From Alphaproteobacteria bacterium (GTDB lineage: Bacteria; Pseudomonadota; Alphaproteobacteria; GCA-2731375): a stretch of DNA of 64,000 nt. The stretch lies in the NCBI GenBank assembly GCA_016776605.1, contig JADHTB010000009.1:31453-95452 (forward strand), in the 5' to 3' direction. The notes under the pieces are model-generated. The model did no database searches. It worked only from the letters and a program-made list of their open reading frames with translations, and had not been told where the DNA came from. The translations under genes and the position numbers were made by a program. Shown here piece by piece: positions 1,188 through 55,160 of this stretch. The stretch's first letter is position 1, and the number at the start of each line of letters is the position of its first letter.

Positions 1188-2468
1188 TCAGAGCACCTTG
1201 ATGGCGCCGGCAAAGGCATCAAGGGTTTTCGCCACATCCGCCTCGTCGTGGGCCAGGGAGATGTAAAATTTGCTGTCCCCCTTCAATACGCCGCGTTCAC
1301 GCAACAGACCATTGAAGCGCTTGGCGCGGTCCAGGTCGTTGCCCTGCATGCCGCGATAGTCCTTGATATCGCCGCTGGTGAAGAAAACGTCAAACAGGGG
1401 CGGCTCGCCAATCACCTGGGCCGGGATACCGGCCTCTTGCAACAGACCGTCCAGACCCTGCATCAGCTTGGTACCGGTGGCAAAAATTTTCTCGTAGGCG
1501 CCCGGACGCTTAAGTATCGCCAACGTGGCCAGACCCGCGACGGCGGCAACGGGATTGCCGCTGAGGGTGCCGATCTGCGGCATGAAACTTTCATCAGCCA
1601 CGGCATTGCGGTCGAAATGCGCCATAATATCCGCCCGGCCCATGATGGCGGCCAGGGGAAAGCCGCCGCCGATTACCTTGCCCATGGCGCAAAGATCGGG
1701 CGTTACGCCGTAATAGGCCTGGGCCCCGCCATAGGCAAAGCGAAAGCCGGTCACCACCTCGTCAAAGATCAGGGGAATATTGTATTCGCTCGCCAGTTTC
1801 CGCAGGGCCTCCAAAAAGCCCGGCTGTGGCGGCAACAGCCTCTGGAAGGGCTCGACGATGATACCGCCCAACTCATCGTGATGTTCCCGGATCAGGCTGG
1901 CCGCGGTCTCGGCATCGTTGAACGGGGCGATCAGAACTTCATCGCGGATCCTTTGCGGGATGCCGGCGGAATCCGGCGTGGCCTGCGGAAAATTGCCGGG
2001 CCGGCTCGGCGCCATGCTCATCAAGGCGTAATCGCTCATGCCATGATAACCGCCCTCGAACTTCAGGATCTTGTCGCGCTTGCGGTGCGCGCGGGCCAGA
2101 CGCATGGCGTAAAAGGTTGCCTCGGAACCGGTCGAGACATAGCGCACCTGATCGGCGCAGGCGACGGCATCCACAATTTCCGCGGCCAACCGAATGCCCG
2201 CTTCATTGTTGGCAAAGAACGTTGTGCCGCGCAGCACCTGTTCCTGCACCGCCGCCAGCACCTCTTCGTTGCAATGGCCAACCAGCATGGGGCCGGAGCC
2301 AATCAGAAAGTCTACATATTCGTTGCCGCTGACATCCCAGACCCGTCCGCCATGGCCCTTTGCAATGACAATATCGGAAGCCAGGTTGCCAAAACCTCCC
2401 GCCGGTAGAACCCGTTGGGCCAGTTCCACCAGCGCCTGTTCGCTATCGCTACGGTTCAGCTTGTTCAT
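1188..2468 (-). CDS. Class-III (PLP-dependent) aminotransferase
   Basis: ORF 1188..2489. Start trimmed to ATG at 2468, which is preceded by GGAG. Class-III aminotransferase hallmarks: 'GGYHGMSDYAL', 'DEVVTGFRFAYGG', 'LSGNPVA'. Confidence 0.75.
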   Translation of the reverse strand: MNKLNRSDSEQALVELAQRVLPAGGFGNLASDIVIAKGHGGRVWDVSGNEYVDFLIGSGPMLVGHCNEEVLAAVQEQVLRGTTFFANNEAGIRLAAEIVDAVACADQVRYVSTGSEATFYAMRLARAHRKRDKILKFEGGYHGMSDYALMSMAPSRPGNFPQATPDSAGIPQRIRDEVLIAPFNDAETAASLIREHHDELGGIIVEPFQRLLPPQPGFLEALRKLASEYNIPLIFDEVVTGFRFAYGGAQAYYGVTPDLCAMGKVIGGGFPLAAIMGRADIMAHFDRNAVADESFMPQIGTLSGNPVAAVAGLATLAILKRPGAYEKIFATGTKLMQGLDGLLQEAGIPAQVIGEPPLFDVFFTSGDIKDYRGMQGNDLDRAKRFNGLLRERGVLKGDSKFYISLAHDEADVAKTLDAFAGAIKVL

Positions 2469-2510
2469 GTGTCTTCTCCTCGGCGACAAAAATTAAGGTC
2501 ACGCTATGGT

Positions 2511-3767
2511 CTATCTGATCATGTTTCGGGGCACGTCACGGAACGGCCGGTCGGTGTCATTGCGGGGTTCCTTGGGCATGCCCAGAACCCGTTCGGAGAT
2601 GATATTGCGCTGAATTTCGTCGGTGCCGCCGGCGATGGAAATGGCGGGCGTCGAGACCAGAATTTCCGCGATAACGCCATCCATGGGACTGTCCGTGCCC
2701 GTCAACATGGCGTCGGCGCCACTGATCAGGGTGTGTACATGGTTGCCCAGGCGCGCCACGTGGCTGGCCGCCAGTTTGCCGATGGAGCCCTCGGGCCCCT
2801 GGTTACGCCCCTGGGCCTGGGCCTCGCGGGCCCGCCGCGCCGTCCATTCCGCCGATTTGGCCAGGATCAGCAGTTTAGCGATTTCCTGGCGCACCGTCGG
2901 GTCGTCGAATTTATCCGTGGCCTTGGCCCGCTCGATCACCAGATCGACCCGGCCCATGCGCTGGGGATACCATTTATAGGGCGCCATGGCCGTGGCCAGT
3001 TCGGTGCGTTCCTCCACATAGGCCCGCTCCGGCCGGTCGGTACCCATGGCCCAGCGGCGCAGCCCGTCGGCGCCCCGGCGTTCATGCATCAAGGTCGTCG
3101 TCGCGATCTTCCAGCCATCGCCAAGGCCTTCCACCATGAATTCCGGCGCGATCTCCGCATCGGTGATAAACACCTGATTGAACGAGGCATGGCCGTTCAT
3201 TTGCCGCAGGGGCTGCACCTCGACGCCCGGCTGTTCCATATCCAATACGAAATAGGTCAACCCCTTGTGCTTTGGCACGTCCCAATCGGTCCGCGCCAGC
3301 AGCAGGCCGAATTGCGCGTGATGGGCCGAGGTCGTCCAGACCTTCTGGCCGTTGATGATCCACTTGCCGTCTTTCAGATCGGCCCGGGTTATCGCCCCCG
3401 CCAGGTCCGAGCCGCTGCCCGGTTCGCTGAACAACTGGCACCAGGTGTCTTCGCCGGTCAGGATGCGGCGCAGAAACTTCTGCTTGTGCATCTGGCTGCC
3501 GTGTTCCAGCAGGGTGGCGGCGGCCAGCATGCGAATGCCGGCCCGGGCCACGCCGATCGCGCCGATGTTCTGAAACTCTTCCTCGACCGCGGTGCCCAGC
3601 CCGCTGGACATACCCTTGCCAAACCATTCCGTCGGCCAGGTCGGCATGCCCCAGCCGGAATCCGCCAGCTTGTTACGCCATTCCACCAGGCCCTGATTTG
3701 GGTCCCAGTTGGCCTCCAGCCAAGCCCGTACGTCCGCCCGAACCAATGCTTCCGTGTCTTCGCTCAT
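2511..3767 (-). CDS. Acyl-CoA dehydrogenase family protein
   Basis: 418 aa. ACAD N-terminal, middle and C-terminal domain signatures (e.g. 'GGTDEIQRNIISERVLGMP' at the C-terminus). Confidence 0.8.
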   Translation of the reverse strand: MSEDTEALVRADVRAWLEANWDPNQGLVEWRNKLADSGWGMPTWPTEWFGKGMSSGLGTAVEEEFQNIGAIGVARAGIRMLAAATLLEHGSQMHKQKFLRRILTGEDTWCQLFSEPGSGSDLAGAITRADLKDGKWIINGQKVWTTSAHHAQFGLLLARTDWDVPKHKGLTYFVLDMEQPGVEVQPLRQMNGHASFNQVFITDAEIAPEFMVEGLGDGWKIATTTLMHERRGADGLRRWAMGTDRPERAYVEERTELATAMAPYKWYPQRMGRVDLVIERAKATDKFDDPTVRQEIAKLLILAKSAEWTARRAREAQAQGRNQGPEGSIGKLAASHVARLGNHVHTLISGADAMLTGTDSPMDGVIAEILVSTPAISIAGGTDEIQRNIISERVLGMPKEPRNDTDRPFRDVPRNMIR

Positions 3768-3787
3768 CCTACCGTTCCTCTACCTAA

Positions 3788-4918
3788 TCAATCCTGCCAG
3801 CGCTGCATCATCAGTTCCCGGTGATAACTGGGATCGCCCAGAAACACTTCGGAACTTTTCGCGCGCTTGAACCACAGATGGGTGTTGTTGTCCCAGGTGA
3901 AGCCGATACCGCCATGGATCTGGATGGCATGAATGGCGGTCTGCATATAGGCCTCCCCCGCGCCCGCCTTGGCCAGAGAGGCCATCGCCGGCAGGTCACC
4001 ATCGTCAGCGTCCGCCGCGGCGGCGGCATAGTAGGCCGCGGACTTCGCCAGCTCCACATCGATCAGCATATCCGCCGCCTTGTGCTTCAAAGTTTGAAAC
4101 GAGGCGATGGTGCGGCCGAACTGCATGCGCAGCATGGCGTAATCCAGGGCCTGCTCCCGTAGCAACTCGGCCCCGCCCACCATCTCGTTGGCCAGACAGG
4201 CTGCCGCCTGATCCAGGGTGCGGGACAGCGGTGCCGCCGCCCCGCCGGCATCGCCCAGCAGTGTGGCCGGCACGCCCTGAAACTCCAAATGGGCCAGCTT
4301 GCGTGTGCTGTCGGTGGATTGCAGCAGGCGCCGCGTCAGGCCCTCTGCCTTGCCCGGCACCGTAAAGAAGGACAGGCCGTCCTCTCCCGTTGATCCGGGC
4401 TGTCGGGCCAGGACCACCAGCAGATCGGCGGTGTGCCCGTCCAGCACGAAACTTTTGGCGCCGTCCAGCTGATAGCCGCCGTCCATGGGCGTTGCCGTCA
4501 TCGCCACGCCGGCGGCATCCCAGCGGCCATTGTCTTCCGTGAAAGCCAGGGCGGCACGGCTATCGCCGGCGGCGATGGCCGGCAACAGGTCACGCTTTTG
4601 CGCCTCATCGCCGGCATTCATGATCGCCGTTGCGGCCAGCACGATGGACGAGAAATAGGGCGCGCATAACAGCGCCCGGCCCATTTCCTCCAGCGCGATG
4701 GCCAGTTCGACAAAGCCAAAGCCCTGGCCGCCATATTCCTCGGGGATGTGGATGGCGGTCAGGCCAAGACCCTGGCTCAACTGGCGCCAGACTTCCTGGT
4801 CATAGCCGGTTTCGGTCTCCATCAGGCGCCTGACTTCCGTGGTTGGTGATTTTTCCGCCAGAAAGCGCCGCAGAACCGAGCGGAATTCCGCCTGTTCATC
4901 GGTAAAACTGAAACTCAT
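3788..4918 (-). CDS. Acyl-CoA dehydrogenase family protein
   Basis: 376 aa starting 'MSFSFTDEQAEFRSVLRRFLAEK'. C-terminal 'IQIHGGIGFTWDNNTHLWFKRAKS' is typical of ACADs. Co-oriented with the ACAD at 2511..3767 and the aminotransferase, so probably one operon. Confidence 0.8.
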   Translation of the reverse strand: MSFSFTDEQAEFRSVLRRFLAEKSPTTEVRRLMETETGYDQEVWRQLSQGLGLTAIHIPEEYGGQGFGFVELAIALEEMGRALLCAPYFSSIVLAATAIMNAGDEAQKRDLLPAIAAGDSRAALAFTEDNGRWDAAGVAMTATPMDGGYQLDGAKSFVLDGHTADLLVVLARQPGSTGEDGLSFFTVPGKAEGLTRRLLQSTDSTRKLAHLEFQGVPATLLGDAGGAAAPLSRTLDQAAACLANEMVGGAELLREQALDYAMLRMQFGRTIASFQTLKHKAADMLIDVELAKSAAYYAAAAADADDGDLPAMASLAKAGAGEAYMQTAIHAIQIHGGIGFTWDNNTHLWFKRAKSSEVFLGDPSYHRELMMQRWQD

Positions 4919-5007: not shown

Positions 5008-6411
5008 ATGACCCAATCAGCCCTTAATCCCACTTTTATGACCGTGCATGCCCTATCCGCCGCGATCAGCGACGGCAGCCTGACCTCCACCGGCGTCGTC
5101 GAACATTGCCTGCGGCAGATCGCAGCCCATGATGGCAAACTGCACGCGTTCGTCGAAGTCTATTGGGAGGAGGCCCGTCTGGCAGCCCAGGCGGCGGATC
5201 AGGCGATCCAGTCCGGCCATCGCCTTGGCCCCCTGCACGGTATTCCCATTGCCCTGAAAGACATCATCGATATGGAGGGGCGCATCACCACGGGCGGCTC
5301 CAAGGTATGGGAGAACCGCCGTTCCCCAACCACGGCAACGGTGGCCCAGCGGCTGATCGGGGCCGGCATGATTATCATTGGCAAGACCCATTCGGTGGAA
5401 TTCGCCATGGGCGGTTGGGGCACGAATACCCACATGGGCACGCCCTGGAACCCCTGGGATATGGAGACCCATCGCACGCCGGGCGGCTCCTCCGCCGGAT
5501 CGGGCGTCGCGGTCGCAGCCGGCATGGTGCCGGCGGCCATTGGTACGGATACCGGCGGGTCCGTGCGCCTGCCCGCGTCATTTTGCGGCCTGGCGGGGTT
5601 AAAAACCACGGTCGGCCGGATCAGCCTGCACGGCATCCTGCCGCTCTCCACCACCTTGGACACGCCCGGCCCCATGACCCGCTCGGTCGAGGATGCGGCC
5701 ATGATCTATGACGTCCTCCAGGGGCCTGACCCCCTGTGGCCGCCGACCCTGGCCCACGGCACCCACGATCCGTTTTCCAGCCTGCGCCGCGGGGTCAAGG
5801 GTTTGCGCCTGGCCGCCATTTCCGCGACCGAGCGCGCCGGCGTCGATGGTCCCACCCTGGCCGCCTTCGATGCGGCGCAAGCAACATTGCGGGACCTGGG
5901 GGCCACCGTCACGGAAGTCGAGATGCCCCGGCCTTTCACCGCTTTCGCCGCCATTGCCGGCCGGATCATCGGTGCCGAGGGCTATCGTTTCGTGGGCGCC
6001 TTGACGGACGATCCGAAGCTGCCCGTCGATCCCAACGTCAGGCCGCGCATTCAACTGGGCCGGGATATCAAGGCCCATGAATATCTCGATGCCCTGGCCG
6101 AACAGCAGGCGGCTAAGGCGGAATATGCCGAGGCTATGATGGATTTCGACGCCTTGTTGCTGCCCAGTACCGAGACGCCGGCCATTCCGTTATCCCAGGT
6201 GGATGAAGGCGGCACCCCGGCGCGCTTCACCCGTGCCGGCAACTGCCTTGAATTATGTGCCCTGTCCCTGCCCAACGGCCTATCACCCGAGGGCCTGCCC
6301 ACATCCCTGCAAATCGCCTGCATGGGGCATGAAGAGGCCATGGCCCTGCGCATCGGCTGGGCCTATGAACAAGCCACCGATTGGCATCGCCAGCACCCGG
6401 CGCTGGATTAG
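5008..6411 (+). CDS. Amidase (amidase-signature family)
   Basis: ATG at 5008 is preceded by GGGAGAGATAAA. Amidase signature 'GGSSAGSGVAVAAGMVPAAIGTDTGGSVRLPASFCGLAGLKTTVGRIS'. Confidence 0.8.
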   Translation: MTQSALNPTFMTVHALSAAISDGSLTSTGVVEHCLRQIAAHDGKLHAFVEVYWEEARLAAQAADQAIQSGHRLGPLHGIPIALKDIIDMEGRITTGGSKVWENRRSPTTATVAQRLIGAGMIIIGKTHSVEFAMGGWGTNTHMGTPWNPWDMETHRTPGGSSAGSGVAVAAGMVPAAIGTDTGGSVRLPASFCGLAGLKTTVGRISLHGILPLSTTLDTPGPMTRSVEDAAMIYDVLQGPDPLWPPTLAHGTHDPFSSLRRGVKGLRLAAISATERAGVDGPTLAAFDAAQATLRDLGATVTEVEMPRPFTAFAAIAGRIIGAEGYRFVGALTDDPKLPVDPNVRPRIQLGRDIKAHEYLDALAEQQAAKAEYAEAMMDFDALLLPSTETPAIPLSQVDEGGTPARFTRAGNCLELCALSLPNGLSPEGLPTSLQIACMGHEEAMALRIGWAYEQATDWHRQHPALD

Positions 6412-6497
6412 GATCACTTTTTGGTGAGGCGGTTGCAAAGCCCGGCACGCTCTGTTCCAATCCCAACAGCAAATTTATTTAGAGGGAGCTATTCAAC

Positions 6498-6977
6498 ATG
6501 ACAGCAAAATTGGCCTCTGGTGACAGCTTTCCCAATATGTCACTGGCTCTGGTCGGGGGCGGCAGCATCGAATTGCCCTCGGACCTGAAGACCAGCTATT
6601 CCGTCATCCTGTTTTATCGCGGCCACTGGTGACCCTACTGCCGCCGGCAGTTGGTCGGCATGGAAAACGAACTGGAAACCTTGAAAAGCCTGGATGTTTC
6701 CGTCATCGCGGCCAGCATTGATGACGAGGAAAAAGCAGCCGAGGTCGCGGCCGAGCTGTCTTTTCCCGTCGCCTATGGCGTGACGCGGGCACAGGCTGAC
6801 AGCATCGACGCCTGGTGGGAAGACAGGCGCAGTATTATACAGCCCAGCGAGTTCCTGCTGAATGCGGGGCATAAGGTCATCTTTTCCACCTACAGCTCCG
6901 GCCCCCTGGGCCGTATGAACCCACCCGATGTGGTGAAGATCATTCAGTTCCTGGAAAAACAGAAACAGAGTGGCTAG
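6498..6977 (+). CDS. Prx-like (AhpC/TSA-redoxin family) selenoprotein candidate; in-frame TGA at 6630-6632 read as selenocysteine
   Basis: ATG 6498 (RBS AGAGGGAG). Translation MTAKLASGDSFPNMSLALVGGGSIELPSDLKTSYSVILFYRGHW-[TGA]-PYCRRQLVGMENELETLKSLDV... stays in frame through the TGA into ORF 6651..6977 (153 nt = 51 codons). The TGA sits at the resolving position of the conserved redoxin 'W-C-P-x-C' motif. Confidence 0.7.
6638..6650 (+). other. SECIS-like stem-loop immediately 3' of the in-frame TGA (CUGCC-GCC-GGCAG)
   Basis: Perfect 5-6 bp inverted repeat ctgccg/cggcag beginning 6 nt after the TGA. Larger alternative pairings are possible (GCCG...CGGC). Confidence 0.3.
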
Positions 6978-7058
6978 ACCGGATCAGTGTTGAGTGTTGA
7001 GTGTTGACGGGGCCGCTTTCGGGTGGTTCGATCGACCCTATTATTCTCTATTCAAGGC

Positions 7059-7163
7059 CTAGAGCATTTTCATTCTGAAAATGCTCAGATCTTTAGAATT
7101 AGAGCAATTTTTCCAATCACTTAGAATCGCTTCGCGATTCTCATTAATTCGGAATTGCTCTAG
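7059..7163. repeat. Copy 1 of a ~104-bp three-hairpin intergenic repeat (MITE/REP-like) with CTAGAGC termini
   Basis: ctAGAGCATTTTCAttcTGAAAATGCTC...AGAATCGCttcGCGATTCT...AATTGCTCTAG. Same architecture as the copies at 20471, 44549 and 49271, with compensatory base changes in hairpin arms. Overlaps the last 6 codons and stop of panC. Confidence 0.75.
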
Positions 7164-8007
7164 CGGCGACGGAAACGTTGTCTATTAGACGGGTAGCGCC
7201 CAACCAGGCGGCGGCAAATAGGCGGGATGGCCGCTGCAAATTCACGGCTGGAGCCAGGGTTTCTGCGTCACGCAGCTCGAAATAGTCAATTTTAGTGAAA
7301 CCGGATTCCGTGAGCCGTTGCAATGCCGCGGCGGTTTCAGCTTCGGGCTCGCCACGCCCTGTTTCGATGTTTTCCGCTGCCGTGCCGAGGCTGCGGAATA
7401 ACGCCGCTGCCTGTTGGCGTTCCGCCGTACCGAGATAGGCGTTGCGCGAGGAAAGCGCCAAACCGTCCTGCTCCCGCACAGTGGGGGCGCCGATGATGTC
7501 GACGGGAATGTTGAGATCCCGCACCACGCGACGGATCACCAGAAGCTGCTGGTAGTCCTTGTCGCCAAACACCGCCACGTCAGGCAATGCTTGCAGAAGC
7601 AGTTTGCTCACCACCGTGGCCACGCCGTCAAAAAACCCTGGCCGCGACAGACCGCAAAGGCAATCAGTGATCCCGGATACTGTCACATTGGTGGCAAAAT
7701 TCTCCGGATACATTTCTCCCACATCGGGGGCGAACAGCAGATCTACCCCCGCAGCCTCAAGCTTTGTCACATCGTCGGCCTCGCCCCGCGGGTACGTCGC
7801 GAAATCCTCCGATGGGCCAAACTGGGCTGGATTGACAAAAATCGTCGCGACCACCCGGTCACACGTTTCCCGTCCCTGGTGCACTAGCGACAAATGCCCC
7901 GCGTGCAATGCCCCCATTGTCGGGACAAGCGCGATTCTCTGGCCGGCGCGCCGCCACTCATCCACCTGATCGCGAAGGGTGGCCACGGTCCTTACGATGT
8001 CGAGCAT
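7144..8007 (-). CDS. panC: Pantoate--beta-alanine ligase
   Basis: 287 aa. 'PTMGALHAGHLSLV' HIGH-type motif and overall PanC collinearity. Confidence 0.9.
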   Translation of the reverse strand: MLDIVRTVATLRDQVDEWRRAGQRIALVPTMGALHAGHLSLVHQGRETCDRVVATIFVNPAQFGPSEDFATYPRGEADDVTKLEAAGVDLLFAPDVGEMYPENFATNVTVSGITDCLCGLSRPGFFDGVATVVSKLLLQALPDVAVFGDKDYQQLLVIRRVVRDLNIPVDIIGAPTVREQDGLALSSRNAYLGTAERQQAAALFRSLGTAAENIETGRGEPEAETAAALQRLTESGFTKIDYFELRDAETLAPAVNLQRPSRLFAAAWLGATRLIDNVSVAARAIPN

Positions 8008-13642: not shown

Positions 13643-13801
13643 GGTTTTCCCCTGAACGTTGGCCAAAATTTTTTGCATTGCATTTGTTGGCGGGTATTCT
13701 GGCCTGGAAGATGGTCCGCGCCAAGGGTCTGTTTACACCCAGCTTCACATAGCCGCCGCGATAGTGGACAATGACGCCCATAAAATAGGGGAGAAAACGA
13801 G

Positions 13802-14764
13802 ATGTCGCTGATATTGGGAGACGGTGATTACCGCTACCGGGTGGTGGAAGATTGGGCCAAGCTGCCCGATGGCTGGGAGTTCCGGGATGTTGCCGGCGTC
13901 GCCGTTGATAGCAAGGATCAGGTCTATATTTTCAACCGCGGCGAACATCCCATGATGGTGTTCGACCGAGAGGGCAACTTTCTGCGTGCCTGGGGCGAAG
14001 GGATCTTTAACCGCGCCCATGGCCTGCACGTCGGGCCCGACGATGCGCTTTATTGCACCGACGATGGCGATCACACCGTGCGCAAATGTACCACCGAGGG
14101 CAAGGTACTGCTGGAAATCGGCGTGCCGGGCAAACCCGCGCCTTACGTTAGTGGCGAGCCGTTTCACCGCTGCACACACACGGCCCTGTCGCCGGATAAT
14201 CATATTTTCGTTTCCGACGGCTATGGCAATGCCAGGGTGCACAAGTACACGCCGGACGGCAAACTGGTCATGTCGTGGGGCGAGCCGGGCAGCGACCCCG
14301 GCCAATTCAACATCGTCCACAATATCGTGGCGGACGATGACGGCTGGATCTATGTAGCGGATCGGGAGAATCACCGCGTCCAGGTATTCGACACAAACGG
14401 CAAATACGAGACCCAATGGAACAACCTGCACCGGCCCTGCGGCCTGTTCATGCCACGGGGCAAATGCCCCCATTGCTTCATTGGCGAACTGGGGCCCGGC
14501 ATGCCGGTCAACCGCCATATGCCCAATCTGGGCCCGCGCCTGAGTATCGTCAGCAACGAAGGCAAGTTGATCGCCCGTCTGGGTGGCAAGGAAGGCCTGG
14601 TCAACGAACCCGGCAAGTTCATGGCGCCGCACGGTCTGGCCGTGGATGGGCATGGCGATATTTATGTCGGCGAGGTCAGCTATACCAACTGGCCGGCCTC
14701 GTTCGGTGACAAACCCATGCCAAAGCTGCTGCACACATTGAAAAAACTGGAAAAGCTGCCTTAG
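13802..14764 (+). CDS. NHL-repeat (six-bladed beta-propeller) protein
   Basis: Repeated NHL-type motifs ('IYVADRENHRVQVFD', 'IFVSDGYGNARVHKY', 'IYVGEV'). RBS GGGGAGAAAACGAG before ATG. The antisense ORF 13745..14734 is judged a shadow. Confidence 0.6.
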   Translation: MSLILGDGDYRYRVVEDWAKLPDGWEFRDVAGVAVDSKDQVYIFNRGEHPMMVFDREGNFLRAWGEGIFNRAHGLHVGPDDALYCTDDGDHTVRKCTTEGKVLLEIGVPGKPAPYVSGEPFHRCTHTALSPDNHIFVSDGYGNARVHKYTPDGKLVMSWGEPGSDPGQFNIVHNIVADDDGWIYVADRENHRVQVFDTNGKYETQWNNLHRPCGLFMPRGKCPHCFIGELGPGMPVNRHMPNLGPRLSIVSNEGKLIARLGGKEGLVNEPGKFMAPHGLAVDGHGDIYVGEVSYTNWPASFGDKPMPKLLHTLKKLEKLP

Positions 14765-18366: not shown

Positions 18367-18584
18367 ACCCGTTTCGATATTCATCGAACCAGGTCTAGCT
18401 TTACGCGCTCACGCTTGTGCGCCAAAGCGCGCCGCTCCGCGGGGGCGGCGCAGGGGCGCCGGGCCGCCGTCACGGCCTGGATAGCGTATTTCAAAATCGA
18501 AAACGGTCTAACCTCTCATTCCTTGCCAATTCATCCCGGCACTGGGGTATAGTTGGGAAAACATGATCCAAGGATGAGGGAAAA

Positions 18585-19517
18585 ATGGAATTACGCAGCT
18601 TTGGCAAGACCGATTTAGAGGTTTCCGTGTTGGGATTCGGCGGCGCGCCCGTTGGCTTCCTGGAAACGGAACAGAACGAAGTCGCCGAGATTCTCAATAA
18701 TTTGCTGGATCAGGGTGTCAATCTGATCGATACGGCTGCCGGCTACGATGGTTCCGAGGAGATGATCGGCAAGACGATCAGCCATCGCCGGGACGAATTT
18801 ATTTTGGTGTCGAAATGCGGCCGGGCGATGGATGATCTTGCAGGCGAGGCATGGTCGGCGGCGGTGATCGAAAATACCGTTGAGCGCGCCCTGCGGCGAT
18901 TAAAGACCGATCATCTGGATGTGATGCTTTTGCATTCCTGTGATCTGGAAACCTTGCAAAAGGGCGAGGCCATTGCGGCGCTGGTCAAGGCGCGGGATGC
19001 CGGCAAGATCCGTTTTCTGGGCTATGCCGGGGACAACGAGGCGGCGGCCTATGCCACCGGGCTGGCTGACGTGGCGGTCATCGAAACCTCGATCAATATG
19101 TGTGATCAGGCCAACATCGACGATGTGCTGACCCTGTGCCAGCAGAATAACGTGGGTGTCATCTCCAAACGCTCCATCGCCAATGCCGCCTGGAAGGGCG
19201 CCGCGCAGCAAAGGGGTATGTACGTGAACTACGCCGAGACCTATGCACAGCGGCTGGCGCAAATGGCGATCACACCGGAAGACCTGGGCTTTCCCGGCGA
19301 GGCCGCGCAGGCCTGGCCCGAAATCGCCCTGCGCTTTACCCTGGCACAGCCGGGCTTGAGTACGGCGATTATCGGCACCACCAAAGCCAGCCATGTCACG
19401 ACCAATCTGGCCGCTGCCGCCAAAGGCCCGCTGCCGGCAAACAGCGTCAACGAACTGCGTGCGGCATTTCAACGGGCCGAGGCCGCCTCGGGTGAAAAAT
19501 GGCTGGGGCAGCAATAG
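18585..19517 (+). CDS. Aldo/keto reductase
   Basis: 'MELRSFGKTDLEVSVLGFGGAPVG...LIDTAAGY' AKR N-terminal signature. 310 aa. Confidence 0.8.
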   Translation: MELRSFGKTDLEVSVLGFGGAPVGFLETEQNEVAEILNNLLDQGVNLIDTAAGYDGSEEMIGKTISHRRDEFILVSKCGRAMDDLAGEAWSAAVIENTVERALRRLKTDHLDVMLLHSCDLETLQKGEAIAALVKARDAGKIRFLGYAGDNEAAAYATGLADVAVIETSINMCDQANIDDVLTLCQQNNVGVISKRSIANAAWKGAAQQRGMYVNYAETYAQRLAQMAITPEDLGFPGEAAQAWPEIALRFTLAQPGLSTAIIGTTKASHVTTNLAAAAKGPLPANSVNELRAAFQRAEAASGEKWLGQQ

Positions 19518-30486: not shown

Positions 30487-32535
30487 CTAAGCCGCCGCGA
30501 CCTGCACACGGGTATCGTTGTAACAGGCGCCTTCGGACAGATCGGCCTTGGTGGTGGGGGCCAGGGCGGAGACGGTCTGGCCGTTGGTCGTGGTCCGCAT
30601 CCAGGCACCCTTGTATGACAGCAATACGCCCCTGGCCACGCTGTCGGTGATTTTCAAAGGCAGGAAGACTTCGCCAAGGCCGTTGAAGACGCGCACCTGT
30701 TGGCCGTCCGCAAGGCCACGGCTGCCCGCGTCATCGGGATGCATTTCCAGGGTCGGTGTGGGGTCGGACTTGCTCAGACCGCCGAACATGGAATTGGTTC
30801 GCCAATTTGACGACGGCGTCAACAAGGCAAAGGGATAGGTGCCGGCGGTATCCTCGTCTTCCGCCAAGGTTTGGAAACGGGGCAACGGGGCCGCGAAGTT
30901 TTCCTCCAGATAGGCTGATTTCAACTCTATCCTACCGCTTTTGGTGGTTGGTTTGTATTCATAGCCAATCCGCGGCCCAGGGGTGGCCATGGATAACACC
31001 GTCCCCGTCGGCAATTCGCTGGGCCGCACGCCGCCCAGACGAGGATCGTCGCCGTCAATGGCATCGTCTATCAGTTGCGCATCGCTGGCCTGGAAAATCG
31101 GATCGTTGAAGCCAAAACGCCGGGCCAGACGGCGGAAGATTTCCGTATTGGGCAAGGCCTCGCCGACCGGTTCGATGACCGGCGCGGCCCGTTGCAGATA
31201 TTGCTGACCATAGGCGCAGAATATATCGTCATGTTCGAAATGGCTGGCCGCCGGCAGCACCACATCAGCGTAGGCCGCCGAGTCCGTCAGGGCGATATCC
31301 ACCACCACGGTAAAGACATCTTCGCGGGCCAGGCCGCGCCGCATGGTGTTCTGATCGGGGTGCACCACCAACGGATTATGGTTGTAGATCACCAGCCCAC
31401 GGATCGGCGGGTCGATATCGTCATCGGCCAGATGTCGGCCCACATCGATGATGTTCAAGGTGCGCGTCCCCTCGGGGATCAAATCCGGGCGCTGCAAACG
31501 TTTCGGGGTCTTGGGGAATAGAGTGCCCGCGCCACCGATCAGACCGCCGGCGGGATGGCTAAACTTGCCGGTCAGGGCCGGCAGGGCAAAGATCGCACGC
31601 AGACCGGCGCCGCCGTTGCGGTTCCGCTCCAAACCGTTGCCCGAGGCGATCACCGCCGGCTCCGCCGCATGATACATTGCGGCCAGGGTTAGAATGTCCT
31701 CGGCCGGAACACCGGTGATCCCGGCGGCCCGTTCGATGCTGAATTGGCGCGCTTCGGCCATGAAGTCTTCGGCGCCCTCGACCGCATCCGCGATGAATGC
31801 GGCATCGAATGCGCCGCGCCTCTCCAATTCCGCCGCCAGGGCAAAGGCCAGCACCACGTCGGTACCGGGCCGGGGTGCCAGATGCAAATCCGCCTGCTCC
31901 GCCACCTTGATCCGCTTGGGATCCACCACCACCACCTTGCCGCCGCGGTCCCGGATACGCTGGATCACGGGCGCCAGGTGCAGGTTGGAAAAGGTGACAT
32001 TGTTGCCCCAGACCACGATCAACTGGGCGCTTTCCACGTCCTCCATCTGGGCCCCCGCGATGGAGCCAAAGGTGCCCAGCCAGGCCTCCGTCTTGATGCC
32101 GCCGCACAAGGGCCGGCGCGACAGGATCGAGGCGCCCATTTGATGGAAGAAGCGCAGATCCATGGAGCCCATGGCCAACAGACCGTGGGGGCCGGCGTAA
32201 TTCAACGGCAGAATGGTTTGCCGACCGTGTTTCGCAATGGCTTCCTGAAACCTGTCATGGATTAAATCCAGCGCCTCTTCCCACGAAATCGCCTCGAAAC
32301 GGCCCTCGCCCTTGGGGCCGACGCGCTTCAGGGGCCGGGTCAGGCGGTTGGCGCCATGGACAAATTCCGGGTAAAGCTTGGAAACCTTGCCGCAGATCGC
32401 GCCTTGGGTCAGCGGATTGACGTTGGAGCCGCGCACCTTGCTGATCTTGCCGTCTTCCACGGTGACGTCCAGGGAACAGGTATCGGGACAATCCAGGGGG
32501 CAGACACTCGCCATTTGCTGGGCCAAAAGAGACAC
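30487..32535 (-). CDS. Molybdopterin-dependent oxidoreductase (MopB superfamily, N-terminal 4Fe-4S)
   Basis: 682 aa. N-terminal 'CPLDCPDTCSL' Fe-S motif and MopB catalytic-domain collinearity. The reading frame is continuous, so it is a Cys-type enzyme and not Sec-containing. Confidence 0.75.
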   Translation of the reverse strand: MSLLAQQMASVCPLDCPDTCSLDVTVEDGKISKVRGSNVNPLTQGAICGKVSKLYPEFVHGANRLTRPLKRVGPKGEGRFEAISWEEALDLIHDRFQEAIAKHGRQTILPLNYAGPHGLLAMGSMDLRFFHQMGASILSRRPLCGGIKTEAWLGTFGSIAGAQMEDVESAQLIVVWGNNVTFSNLHLAPVIQRIRDRGGKVVVVDPKRIKVAEQADLHLAPRPGTDVVLAFALAAELERRGAFDAAFIADAVEGAEDFMAEARQFSIERAAGITGVPAEDILTLAAMYHAAEPAVIASGNGLERNRNGGAGLRAIFALPALTGKFSHPAGGLIGGAGTLFPKTPKRLQRPDLIPEGTRTLNIIDVGRHLADDDIDPPIRGLVIYNHNPLVVHPDQNTMRRGLAREDVFTVVVDIALTDSAAYADVVLPAASHFEHDDIFCAYGQQYLQRAAPVIEPVGEALPNTEIFRRLARRFGFNDPIFQASDAQLIDDAIDGDDPRLGGVRPSELPTGTVLSMATPGPRIGYEYKPTTKSGRIELKSAYLEENFAAPLPRFQTLAEDEDTAGTYPFALLTPSSNWRTNSMFGGLSKSDPTPTLEMHPDDAGSRGLADGQQVRVFNGLGEVFLPLKITDSVARGVLLSYKGAWMRTTTNGQTVSALAPTTKADLSEGACYNDTRVQVAAA

Positions 32536-36543: not shown

Positions 36544-37065
36544 CTAAGCTTCCATCAGAATTGGCAGGGCCTGGGCATAGGCGGCCTCGGCCAGGGTCTT
36601 GATTTCAGGCAAGGTGCGGCTGCCGATGGGGTGCTCGACCATGATGAAGGGATAATCGGGCAGACCCAGCATGCGGGCAATGTTCCTGACCGTCACCTCG
36701 AACGGTTCGGTACAGACAACAACCGCACGCTTGCCTAGTTGTTCGAAGCTGATGCCGTCATGCAAACTGCACGTTGAGCAACTGCCTCAATCTCCCAGAC
36801 CGGTAATCAGGAAATCCACGTCATTTGCGGCCGCCTGCAATGTTTTGCCGGGTGCGGGCGCCGAGGCATTGCTCTTTGAGAAGATCGGTAGAATGATGCA
36901 GCCATGGCGCTGTTCGAACAGCGCCGCGGTCTCCCGCAGCATGTTGGTGGCGTTTAGCTTACCATTCTCCAACAGCCCGATGGTCTTGCCCTCCAGGTCC
37001 GGCAACGGCGCTGCGCGGGCATAATTCCGCTCCGGCCCCGTTACGGTAGGGTCATAGAGTTGCAT
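36544..37065 (-). CDS. UGSC-motif selenoprotein candidate (in-frame TGA at 36787-36789 read as Sec; motif D-U-G-S-C-S-T-C)
   Basis: Track ORFs 36787..37206 and 36544..36765 (minus) are in the same frame, separated only by TGA plus 7 codons (GSCSTCS). Start trimmed to ATG 37065 with a GGAGGAGAAAC RBS. ~173 aa with Sec at residue 93 in a UxxCxxC context. Confidence 0.65.
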
Positions 37066-37108
37066 GTTTCTCCTCCAATCATTGTTCTTGCTGCTGTCAT
37101 GGCAGCAA

Positions 37109-38188
37109 TTAGTCGCAATCAATGCAGACGCCAATGGGCTTCGACTGCATGATCGAGCTGCGGCCGCGACTCCAGGACGGGATAAAGCACGAGTGGCCCC
37201 CGGCATCGCCGCCGCCCATGACCACCAGAATATCGTCCGGGCTTAATCCCCGGTGCATCTTGCCGGCCTCCACCAGGGGGCTGCCGCCGCCCTCTTCGTG
37301 CTGTTTATCGTACTCGCGCTGCCTATATTTGCCGACCGACTGCATACCTTTGACCGTGCGGGTCGCTTGGCAGAAAAGGAATTCCCGCACTTGTTTCTTG
37401 CTCCAGCCGGTAGAGGCAATAACCCGGACATGCTCCGGCGACAGCACGACAACCGATTGGCCAAGCGTAATACAGCCATAATTGGCCATCGCGTCGGCAA
37501 TGGAGCCCAGGACCTGCTCCGGTGTGTTGCCGCCGTGGTTTTCCACATTGCAAAAACCACCACCCGCGAACACGGTCACGCTGCTGACGCCTGGGGGATA
37601 GTCCAGATCTTCGACCAGCAGGGGCCAGGGATTGCCCCGCGACCGCTCGGCGATACAAAAGCTGAACTTGCCGGGATTGCCCTGGGTCGATTTGTCGGAT
37701 ACGCCCGGGATCATCCGGAACACATTCATTAGGATCAGGCGCACGGCACGGCCGATGGTGGCGTTGGCGCGGTTACCGGGGCCGAACAGGTTCACATCGG
37801 CATTCATGCCGATATCGTCGATCACAGGTCCGCTGACCACCAGCAAGGGCGCCGAGCCCCCCGTACTGGCGGTCGAGCCATGAAAATTGAAGCCCGGTTC
37901 GTTCATCGCCTCGATCGCCGCAACGACGACGGGGAAGAATTCCGGCTTGCAGCCGGCCATGACCGCATTCACCGCCGCCGCGTGCGCTGTGCATTCAAAT
38001 CCCGTGGCCGGATGGGCCGCCAGCACGGTTTCCGGCGGCCGCCCCTCAAACAACAGCATCGCCTCGACGCGCTGCACGTCCGGCGGAACAACCGGCAAGC
38101 CGTCGGTCCAGCCTTGCTCGTAGCAATAGTCGATAGCGGCCAACAGATCGTCCTCGACCTCATGGATCCGGGCTGTCGCGTGCGCCAT
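37109..38188 (-). CDS. Conserved hypothetical protein (~360 aa), co-oriented 43 nt upstream of the UGSC selenoprotein gene
   Basis: Start trimmed to ATG 38188 (GGGAGAT RBS; 'MAHATARIHEVEDD...'), because the track ORF's N-terminus would overlap the divergent TauD-like gene. Good GC3 bias. No family recognised. Confidence 0.45.
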   Translation of the reverse strand: MAHATARIHEVEDDLLAAIDYCYEQGWTDGLPVVPPDVQRVEAMLLFEGRPPETVLAAHPATGFECTAHAAAVNAVMAGCKPEFFPVVVAAIEAMNEPGFNFHGSTASTGGSAPLLVVSGPVIDDIGMNADVNLFGPGNRANATIGRAVRLILMNVFRMIPGVSDKSTQGNPGKFSFCIAERSRGNPWPLLVEDLDYPPGVSSVTVFAGGGFCNVENHGGNTPEQVLGSIADAMANYGCITLGQSVVVLSPEHVRVIASTGWSKKQVREFLFCQATRTVKGMQSVGKYRQREYDKQHEEGGGSPLVEAGKMHRGLSPDDILVVMGGGDAGGHSCFIPSWSRGRSSIMQSKPIGVCIDCD

Positions 38189-53711: not shown

Positions 53712-55160
53712 ATGGTGGTGCGGATCGATCCGGTAATCCTGTCAGGTGGTTCGGGCACCCGGTTATGGCCCCTGTCACGGGCCGCGTACCCCAAGCAACT
53801 TTTACCCCTGACCGACAGCCACAGCATGTTGCAGGCCACGGTATTGCGGATCTCGGACCCGGCCCGGTTTAATCCCCCGACCCTGATCTGCAATGACGAA
53901 CACCGCTTTATCGTAGCCGAACAATTGCGCGCCATTGCTGTCGAGCCCGCGGATATCGTGTTGGAACCCATGGGCAGGAATACCGCCCCCGCCGCCACGG
54001 TGGCTGCCCTGCTGGCAGCGGCCCGGGCGCCGGATGCGATGATCCTGATACTGCCCTCCGACCACAGCATCGCCGACACGCCTGCTTTTCTGGCGGTGAT
54101 CGACACCGCCGCACAGGCCGCACAAGGGGGGGCGCTGGTCACCTTTGGCATCACGCCCACGTCGCCTGAAACCGGCTATGGCTATATCAAGCGCGGCGCG
54201 GCTCTGCCGGGCCTTGATTGCTGCCACAAAGTTGCTGAATTCGTTGAAAAACCCGAACGGGACAAGGCCGAGGCGATGCTGGCGGCGGGCGGCTTTGATT
54301 GGAACAGCGGGATGTTCCTGTTCCAGGCCGGGCACCTGTTGGCGGAGATGGAACGTCTGGCCCCCGATATCGTGCGGGCCTGCCGGAACGCCGTGACCGC
54401 CGCGCAGCGGGATCTATCCTTCATGCGCCTGGATGCCGCGGCGTTCGCGGCCAACCCCAACATCTCTATCGATTATGCGGTGATGGAAAAGACCATGTCG
54501 GCGGCGGTTGCCAGCGCCGATATAGGCTGGAGCGACGTCGGCTCCTGGTCGGCCTTGTGGGAACTGGGGCTGGAAGCTGGCGGGGCCGGCGATGACGCCA
54601 ATAACGTGACCGTGGGCGATGTCATTCTGGACGATGTCGCCAACAGCTATGTCCGGGCGGAAAGGCGCTTGGTGGCCGCCCTTGGGGTCAGGGACCTGGT
54701 GATCGTGGAAACCGGCGATGCGGTCCTGGTGGCCAGCCGGGACAAGGTGCAGGAGGTTAAAACCATCGTCGACCGCCTGAAAGCCGACGGCCGGGGCGAG
54801 TCCGAACAAAACCTCAGGGTCTATCGCCCCTGGGGCTATTACGAGGGTATGGACCAGGGCGACCGTTTTCAGGTCAAACGGATCAGTGTGAAGCCGGGGC
54901 AGAAACTGTCCCTGCAAATGCATCACCACCGGGCCGAACATTGGATCGTGGTCGAAGGCACCGCGAAAGTGACCTGCAACGATGAAACCCGGTTGCTGGA
55001 GGAAAACCAGTCGACATATATTCCCATCGGGGCCTGGCACCGGCTGGAAAATCCCGGCAAGGTCGACCTGAAAATAATCGAAGTACAGTCGGGGAGCTAC
55101 TTGGGCGAGGACGACATCGTGCGCAGCGACGACGACTACGGCCGCGACAGCAAAAGCTGA
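53712..55160 (+). CDS. manC: Bifunctional mannose-1-phosphate guanylyltransferase / mannose-6-phosphate isomerase (ManC/XanB type)
   Basis: N-terminal 'ILSGGSGTRLWPLS' nucleotidyltransferase motif and a C-terminal cupin ('...HRAEHWIVVEGTAKV'). Confidence 0.85.
   Translation: MVVRIDPVILSGGSGTRLWPLSRAAYPKQLLPLTDSHSMLQATVLRISDPARFNPPTLICNDEHRFIVAEQLRAIAVEPADIVLEPMGRNTAPAATVAALLAAARAPDAMILILPSDHSIADTPAFLAVIDTAAQAAQGGALVTFGITPTSPETGYGYIKRGAALPGLDCCHKVAEFVEKPERDKAEAMLAAGGFDWNSGMFLFQAGHLLAEMERLAPDIVRACRNAVTAAQRDLSFMRLDAAAFAANPNISIDYAVMEKTMSAAVASADIGWSDVGSWSALWELGLEAGGAGDDANNVTVGDVILDDVANSYVRAERRLVAALGVRDLVIVETGDAVLVASRDKVQEVKTIVDRLKADGRGESEQNLRVYRPWGYYEGMDQGDRFQVKRISVKPGQKLSLQMHHHRAEHWIVVEGTAKVTCNDETRLLEENQSTYIPIGAWHRLENPGKVDLKIIEVQSGSYLGEDDIVRSDDDYGRDSKS

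Follow-up and report, generated by a model that had tools for sequence, protein, structure and literature searches.

In the window, that is, the whole 64-kb stretch of DNA analysed here, a reading frame of 159 codons begins with the ATG at 6498, contains a single in-frame TGA (6630-6632) and ends with the TAG at 6975-6977. The 44 sense codons before the TGA are translated as MTAKLASGDSFPNMSLALVGGGSIELPSDLKTSYSVILFYRGHW, and the 113 sense codons after it as PYCRRQLVGMEN...EKQKQSG. The features of this locus are listed in Table 1, together with those of a second gene that is discussed below. Among them is a Shine-Dalgarno-like sequence, AGAGGGAG, whose position supports the ATG at 6498 as the true start. 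The original prediction described a redoxin gene with an in-frame TGA, and it placed a shorter downstream frame in phase with the same ATG. Both statements agree with what is found, since the mechanical list of open reading frames gives the two halves, 6498-6632 and 6651-6977, in a shared frame, and the TGA falls inside one AhpC-TSA/Redoxin domain. When Cys is substituted at this codon, the Pfam family AhpC-TSA (PF00578) matches residues 8-128 with E=7e-19 and 68 bits (cut-off 26), while the Redoxin domain matches with E=1e-13, as a single domain that runs across the TGA and out to residue 136. At the active site the DNA reads GHW-TGA-CCC-TAC-TGC, which would correspond to U45-P-Y-C48. A promoter and terminator scan of 6300-7200 gave no signal exceeding shuffle expectation, and an Rfam scan of the whole window at the gathering threshold returned a tRNA-Thr only, with no curated family at the 6498-6977 locus.

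Table 1. Features of the Prx-like locus and of the second putative selenoprotein gene in the window.
Feature	Position	Strand	Remarks
Predicted selenoprotein CDS, Prx-like thioredoxin-fold oxidoreductase	6498..6977	+	U45-P-Y-C48; 158 residues followed by a TAG stop
Shine-Dalgarno-like sequence AGAGGGAG	6481..6488	+	9 nt 5' of the ATG at 6498-6500; read from the sequence
UGA, codon 45, putative Sec for the first Cys of CxxC	6630..6632	+	From the comparison of the column in homologues
TGC, Cys48, predicted partner (resolving) Cys of UxxC	6639..6641	+	Invariant in full-length homologues
Candidate SECIS hairpin, 17 nt	6643..6659	+	6-bp stem 6643-6648/6654-6659, loop AGUUG 6649-6653; RNAalifold and covariation
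Putative selenoprotein gene, UGSC family	36544-37068	-	TGA 36787-36789 at the U of ...GLGD-U-GSC-STC...

A homologue scan restricted to one genome per species yielded 44 collinear full-length matches (L001-L044), and the codon at the TGA column divides them sharply. The first 32 (L001-L032) are from MAGs of Alpha-, Beta- and Gammaproteobacteria and encode proteins that share 48-88% identity with that of the window; all 32 read GHW-TGA-P-Y/F/H-C, with the TGA at the same column, and other in-frame stops are present in L018 and L022 only. The other 12 (L033-L044) read GHW-C-P-Y/F-C; their hosts are one gammaproteobacterium, Dehalococcoidia/Chloroflexota, Gemmatimonadota, Ktedonobacteria and the actinomycete Actinoallomurus. 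That is, the codon at the Sec column is TGA in 33/33 proteobacterial orthologues (the window and the 32 loci) and TGC or TGT in 12/12 more distant homologues, which is the outcome that the original prediction had anticipated for its catalytic-cysteine position. Cys forms are also present among the database proteins (P0006, P0019, P0034, P0083 and P0116, of which P0006 and P0019 are the close ones).

The half of the gene that lies 5' of the TGA was also compared with that of its relatives. Over these 44 codons, the first, second and third codon positions show 5/3/15 differences from L002 and 6/4/16 from L003, and, judged from this distribution, the codons upstream of the TGA evolve as coding sequence. 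Moreover, a 105-aa stub that is 99% identical (P0001) is encoded in at least six independent assemblies (NCBI, ENA, JGI, Logan). In six assemblies, derived from different samples, the gene is ~96.7% identical to the window copy (15-16 differences/480 nt) and has the TGA at codon 45. An assembly error, which the original prediction had named as one possible explanation, is therefore excluded, and so is a nonsense mutation private to the window copy.

Then, could the TGA nevertheless be a true stop? The locus would in that case be a pseudogene or two small genes, of 44 aa and ~105 aa, that a nonsense mutation has separated, or else the TGA would be a sequencing or assembly error. The public annotation reads this way. 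Gene callers split the locus into pieces of 44 aa and 105 aa in every related assembly, the six mentioned above included, and most database entries for the subfamily are 105-aa stubs; among the best 120 database homologues, ~80% are stubs of 98-109 aa, which bears out the expectation that standard callers would annotate the C-terminal part only. Furthermore, L018 has an added TAG six codons later, a sign of decay in at least one record, and no Sec machinery is found within the 64-kb window. However, 33 genomes of three proteobacterial classes are not expected to share a nonsense mutation at one and the same codon with the flanking protein conserved, and the TGA is present in each of the six independent assemblies. 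The TGA also coincides with the column of the catalytic Cys and is followed by a covarying hairpin that is missing in the Cys forms (see below), and truncation of a thioredoxin fold at the active site would remove its CxxC motif. On this evidence we regard a true stop as very improbable.

A hairpin immediately downstream of the TGA had been proposed as the SECIS element, at 6638-6650. The inverted repeat CTGCCG/CGGCAG is indeed present there, so that this part of the proposal stands. The perfect hairpin does not, since a single base separates the two arms, so that they can pair only by shortening the stem and leaving a loop of 3 nt; the structure is not conserved, and no compensatory change accompanies it. 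In the single sequence the fold consists of ACUGCC/GGCAGU with the loop GCC, lengthened at the base by a further stem that takes in the UGA, at -18.4 kcal/mol over 6627-6690; compared with shuffled sequences it has z = -1.28, and 24/200 shuffles are at least as stable.

For the SECIS tests, the 33 TGA forms, the window included, were aligned without gaps. On this alignment RNAalifold picks columns 20-25/31-36, equivalent to 6643-6648/6654-6659 in the window, i.e., the hairpin 6643-6659 listed in Table 1, in which the distance from the UGA is 10 nt to the stem and 16 nt to the loop. Compensatory changes are found at three pairs of this hairpin. Pair 21/35 is CG in 23 forms, GC in 6 and UA in 4; pair 24/32 is GC in 16, GU in 12, UA in 4 and AU in 1; and pair 20/36 is GC in 27, GU in 2 and UA in 1, with 3 forms unpaired. 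The number of double-change cells is 16, against 2.6 ± 1.4 in shuffled alignments, and 0/500 shuffles reach the observed number, although the shuffle controls overstate the significance of the covariation because related sequences share ancestry. When the 3' partner is slid by 1-3 columns, pairing drops from 85% to 14-56%, and this control still favours the proposed pairing.

The Sec and the Cys forms differ strongly at this site. All six pairs form in 29/33 Sec forms and in 0/12 Cys forms, and the mean hairpin energy is -10.8 kcal/mol in the former versus -2.6 kcal/mol in the latter. The apical loop of the 33 Sec forms is AGUUG (30) or AGUUA (3). The Leu codon at +7 is TTG or TTA in 33/33 Sec forms, versus CTN in 10/12 Cys forms; among the Sec forms, the Gln codon at +6 is CAG in 32/33 and the Arg codon at +5 is CGG in 28/33. 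By these codon counts, the synonymous sites over the SECIS are frozen in the Sec forms only. The hairpin also places a constraint on the protein, because codon +8, which specifies Val, Ala or Asp, has its second position base-paired to the third position of codon +5. The SECIS, which lies within the codons of the active-site helix, appears to dictate residue 53 (Val/Ala/Asp) through the third position of codon 50 (Arg).

The minimal SECIS of E. coli fdhF is a 17-nt upper stem-loop that is located 11 nt from the UGA and bound by SelB. The predicted SECIS in the window is likewise an in-frame hairpin of ~17 nt just 3' of the UGA with a small loop containing G-U; unlike that of fdhF, it consists of a 6-bp stem with no evident bulged U, its loop is AGUUG rather than GGUC, and its spacer is 10 nt rather than 11 nt. 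More generally, the apical loop of a bacterial SECIS lies 16-37 nt from the UGA (PMC10778597), is small and contains a guanosine (PMC1088965). The geometry of the hairpin 6643-6659, with a small loop containing G-U at 16 nt from the UGA, fits this published description.

Alternatively, the gene could encode a selenoprotein whose functional SECIS is the structure at 6638-6650 together with the lower stem that includes the UGA. When the sequence is folded alone, this structure has the lowest free energy (-18.4 kcal/mol over 6627-6690); over 6630-6665 the competitor that includes the UGA has -15.1 kcal/mol versus -10.3 kcal/mol for the hairpin 6643-6659. Its pairs also form in 82% of cells across the orthologues, a rate that is high because the Cys-Arg-Arg-Gln codons are conserved. 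On the other hand, it shows zero compensatory pairs in the 33 orthologues, its covariation score equals the shuffled mean and RNAalifold does not select it. Several of its pairs are broken among the 33 sequences (9/32 in 20, 14/28 in 12, 18/24 in 5 and 19/23 in 3). Its loop is just 10 nt from the UGA, outside the range of 16-37 nt (PMC10778597), and would probably be inside the ribosome during decoding of the UGA. The site 6638-6650 was consequently rejected as the SECIS, and a selenoprotein gene that depends on it is, in our judgement, highly unlikely. The two hairpins overlap and are mutually exclusive, and the SECIS candidate that is supported by covariation at this locus is 6643-6659.

We also searched for the machinery of Sec insertion. 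In the 64-kb window, ARAGORN finds a tRNA-Thr alone and no tRNA-Sec, Pfam scans of 38 ORFs, including every one of the size of SelA, SelB or SelD, detect no selA, selB or selD, and tblastn with the SelA and SelB proteins of L009 and L027 gives no match. In the orthologous loci, three adjoin selA/selB, and two of them tRNA-Sec as well. In L009 the order is selA (PF03841, 2e-83), selB (with SelB-specific domains), tRNA-Sec (anticodon TCA) and the TGA gene. In L027 the TGA gene is followed by tRNA-Sec, selB and selA on the opposite strand, and in L021 selA/selB are no more than 3 kb from the TGA gene.

A further gene with an in-frame TGA was found on the opposite strand of the window (Table 1). 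Pfam UGSC matches the upstream half of this gene, up to the TGA. The read-through protein matches the NCBIfam model NF041046, 'UGSC family (seleno)protein', over 145/147 positions with E=1e-34, at 119.5 bits, which is below the curated cut-off of 125. A 6-bp hairpin with the loop GUU starts 13 nt 3' of the UGA, and L027 also has a UGSC gene with a TGA and an equivalent hairpin. Given the linkage in the orthologues and the presence of the UGSC gene in the window, the source genome probably decodes UGA as Sec. The scan for other frames with a single read-through TGA gave 108 candidates in the window, of which a few were inspected; among the latter, the UGSC gene is the only second selenoprotein gene. 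The frame 18417-19517 was rejected, being an ordinary aldo/keto reductase whose start lies after the TGA, and the molybdopterin oxidoreductase gene at 30487-32535 on the reverse strand has no in-frame TGA.

As regards the use of TGA as a stop, it closes 11/52 window ORFs (21%, at 61% GC), compared with 82/156 (53%) of those that flank the orthologues in other MAGs. It should be noted that the lineage might be unusually committed to UGA-Sec decoding, with two selenoprotein genes in 64 kb and rare TGA stops, although we consider this unlikely. If it were true, TGA stops would behave as if selected against, limiting the competition of release factor 2 with SelB.

Another possibility is that read-through of the UGA inserts Trp, Cys or Gly instead of Sec, owing to code reassignment or to near-cognate suppression. 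The database proteins P0002, P0016 and P0026 of the subfamily have W at the Sec column and P0009 has Q, and TGA is unusually rare as a stop in the window ORFs, as described above. Nevertheless, P0009 is nearly identical in sequence to L007 and L018, whose DNA reads TGA at this position, so that the W and Q residues look like translations made by gene callers. The homologues carry Cys at this column, neither Trp nor Gly. TGA terminates ordinary genes of the window, such as those of an aminotransferase (1188-2489), an acyl-CoA dehydrogenase (3788-4918) and ManC (53712-55160); TGA is thus a normal stop in the window, which argues against a reassigned code. Moreover, the hairpin of the SECIS type and the adjacency of selA, selB and tRNA-Sec in orthologous loci point specifically to Sec. 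Consequently, there is scarcely any chance that the codon is decoded as one of these other amino acids.

In our estimation, with a probability of about 0.92, 6498-6977 is one intact gene that encodes a 'Prx-like 1' UxxC selenoprotein, and the SECIS at 6643-6659 recruits Sec decoding. The central claim of the original prediction, a Prx-like redoxin in which Sec substitutes for the first Cys of W-C-P-x-C, is thereby upheld by the Sec/Cys pairs, the TGA in 33 genomes and the published members of the family; the linkage with selA, selB and tRNA-Sec in orthologous loci also backs it. As for the hairpin, the SECIS of that prediction at 6638-6650 fails for want of covariation, with pairs broken in the orthologues and a loop too close to the UGA.

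The family itself was reported long ago. In the Sargasso Sea survey of 2005, a Prx-like family with a UXXC motif comprised 22 sequences (PMC1088965), and a survey of 2006 detected this family in Geobacter, Syntrophus and Desulfotalea (PMC1794560). The GOS survey of 2008 described 'Prx-like 1, pfam00578, UxxC' with 225 selenoprotein sequences from 37 samples, and the members given under '#Prx-like 1' in its supplement read like MNGKYNVVLFYRGHWUPYCRRQLVAFEE...IQPSEF...YSSGPLGR (PMC2398784). The signature FYRGHWUPYCRRQL...IQPSEF...YSSGPLGR is common to these reads and the window protein. The string 'GHWUP' occurs 30 times in this supplement, and the window protein is 56% identical over 126 residues to the 'Prx-like 1' read JCVI_READ_286511 (E=2e-51). 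In a review of 2026, the 'Prx-like thiol:disulfide oxidoreductase, PF00578, UxxC', with WP_010940744.1 as the type example, is classed as 'predicted with high confidence' and not experimentally verified (PMC13188914). The window protein shares with Prx-like 1 the family pfam00578, the UxxC motif with Sec first, the existence of Cys homologues, a bacterial SECIS within the ORF and a marine proteobacterial origin. There is no substantive difference, and the window copy is merely unannotated as a selenoprotein in the public records. Therefore, the gene is a plain member of a published family, and the family, the motif and the SECIS type have been known since 2004-2008.

The fold of the protein was examined on the Cys homologue P0006, which is 58% identical to the window protein and was modelled with AlphaFold. 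The model (pLDDT 89.5, pTM 0.87) shows one Prx-like domain in which helix 46-57 has the Cys at its N-terminus, and its top matches in the PDB are all peroxiredoxins (Bcp4, Prx1, AhpC), with TM 0.75-0.82. By sequence, the nearest solved structures are variants of B. subtilis ResA (PDB 3c71 and 1st9, E=8e-9). In the alignment with 3c71, WCPYC stands against WCPHC, with Sec at the first Cys, and QPSEFL stands against the cis-Pro loop LPTTFL; the motif of wild-type ResA is CEPC. The window protein is thus predicted to be a Prx-shaped thioredoxin fold with a UxxC centre of the thioredoxin type.

Peroxiredoxins have a thioredoxin fold elaborated by an N-terminal beta-hairpin and insertions, and their active site consists of the PxxxT/SxxC motif and a conserved Arg. 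The window protein resembles canonical peroxiredoxins (AhpC, BCP/PrxQ, Prx1, Prx6) in the overall fold and in having Sec at the position of the peroxidatic Cys. Unlike them, it is without PxxxT/SxxC, reading L-F-Y-R-G-H-W-U instead, so that position -3 relative to the Sec is occupied by Gly and position -7 by Leu; its Trx-type cis-Pro (QPSEF) aligns where Prx has the Arg; and it has a partner Cys of the CxxC type. Likewise, true peroxiredoxins that contain Sec have TxxU, in contrast to the UxxC of the window protein (PMC1088965). With ResA/TlpA proteins (B. subtilis ResA) it shares the W-C-x-x-C active site and the cis-Pro loop. Whereas ResA is membrane-anchored, extracytoplasmic and involved in cytochrome c maturation, the N-terminus of the window protein, MTAKLASGDSFPN, shows no hydrophobic segment, signal or anchor when read from the sequence, and the protein is thus probably cytoplasmic. 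In NCBIfam no curated model reaches its cut-off, the best being ResA with 30.1 bits (cut-off 170), and a SelL-related model has 26 bits. The Prx-shaped fold, the lack of PxxxT/SxxC and the NCBIfam scores below the cut-offs together suggest the designation 'Prx-like', as used in the literature.

For Sec insertion in the source organism, SelB binding, the location of the protein, its catalytic cycle and its substrate, we infer the following scheme. During translation, the UGA at 6630-6632 would not be read as a stop. While it occupies the A site, the hairpin 6643-6659 would be just outside the ribosome and would recruit SelB-GTP-Sec-tRNA(Sec), leading to the insertion of Sec at residue 45. Located at the N-terminus of the active-site helix, Sec45 would take the position of the attacking Cys in CxxC oxidoreductases and of the peroxidatic Cys in peroxiredoxins, and its selenolate would most likely attack an oxidised substrate, be it a disulfide, a sulfenic acid or a peroxide. 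Cys48 may then resolve the adduct, leading to an intramolecular selenenylsulfide, which a system of the thioredoxin or glutathione type could re-reduce.

The value of these results lies mainly in the repair of annotation, and conceptually nothing is new; the second selenoprotein gene of the window and the infrequent use of TGA as a stop are of some residual side value. In the public records, the gene and most of its relatives appear as 105-aa stubs named 'hypothetical protein' or 'peroxiredoxin', or else show W or Q in place of the Sec. As a consequence of such annotations, too few selenoproteins are counted in the marine and soil MAGs of Proteobacteria, and the SECIS pattern described here, a 6-bp stem with an AGUUG loop and a 10-nt spacer, could help to correct the annotation of the subfamily.

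The TGA-containing Prx-like gene sits in a Sec island at three of the orthologous loci, L009, L027 and L021, whose extents and gene contents are listed in the table below. Within the window, the gene on the minus strand matching the NF041046 family (E=1e-34, 119.5 bits, against a cut-off of 125) is, as judged from its sequence, a further selenoprotein gene and belongs to the UGSC family. Reading through its in-frame TGA gives ...ITGLGD-U-GSC-STC..., and a 6-bp hairpin with the loop GUU begins 13 nt past the UGA. In the ORF list, this gene is represented only by the 139-aa ORF 36787-37206.

Coordinates of the features at the orthologous loci and in the window.
Feature	Sequence	Position	Strand	Remarks
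Sec island	L009	66-3468		Order selA-selB-tRNA-Sec-Prx-like gene
Sec island	L027	1139-6309		UGSC gene (TGA), Prx-like gene (TGA), tRNA-Sec, selB, selA
Sec island	L021	2-1497		selA-selB with Prx-like gene (TGA)
Putative UGSC-family selenoprotein gene	Window	36544-37068	-	In-frame TGA 36787-36789; NF041046 match
Long ORF	Window	2415-3824	+	No Pfam match
Long ORF	Window	13745-14734	-	No Pfam match
Three tandem AGTGTTG copies	Window	6986-7006		9 nt past the TAG stop of the Prx-like gene
panC	Window	7144-8007	-	Convergent with the Prx-like gene

TGA stops are unusually rare in the window for a GC content of 61% (GC3 72%): of the 52 ORFs that are 150 aa or longer, a mechanically defined set with a few spurious ORFs in it, 22 end in TAA, 19 in TAG and 11 in TGA, and ordinary genes are still terminated by TGA. 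The 32 orthologous loci come from other proteobacterial MAGs, and in the sequence flanking them TGA accounts for 82 of 156 stops.

Across the window (6645-6656) and the orthologues, residue 53 of the Prx-like protein (Val, Ala or Asp, encoded by codon +8 counted from the TGA) varies with the third base of the Arg codon 50 (codon +5), the combinations being CGG with GTC or GCC, CGT with GAC, and CGA with GTC. Since the third base of codon +5 and the second base of codon +8 pair with each other in the SECIS stem, residue 53 of the protein shows a constraint imposed by the RNA. At L018 (3118-3183), from an uncultured Rhodospirillaceae MAG, codon +6 has changed from CAG to TAG, which gives PYCRR*LADF and falls within the SECIS loop region; this TAG is either an error in the MAG consensus or the mark of a decaying copy.

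Downstream of the Prx-like gene, the AGTGTTG copies lie in the 166-nt spacer that separates it from panC, where no terminator-like site was found. Each of the two long ORFs is probably the shadow of a genuine gene on the opposite strand, because the corresponding places of L081, a contig syntenic with the window, carry gene calls for a second acyl-CoA dehydrogenase and for an NHL-repeat protein.

Public protein sets systematically truncate the Sec forms of this Prx-like subfamily: of the 120 top-ranking homologues in the database, about 95 are C-terminal stubs of 98-109 aa that begin directly past the TGA. Among the full-length entries, P0002, P0016 and P0026 have Trp at the Sec column (GHWWPYC) and P0009 has Gln (GHWQPYC). 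The loci L007 and L018, nearly identical to P0009 in sequence, have TGA at this column in their DNA. Consequently, the Trp and Gln residues look like a codon translated under another code by gene callers rather than real substitutions.
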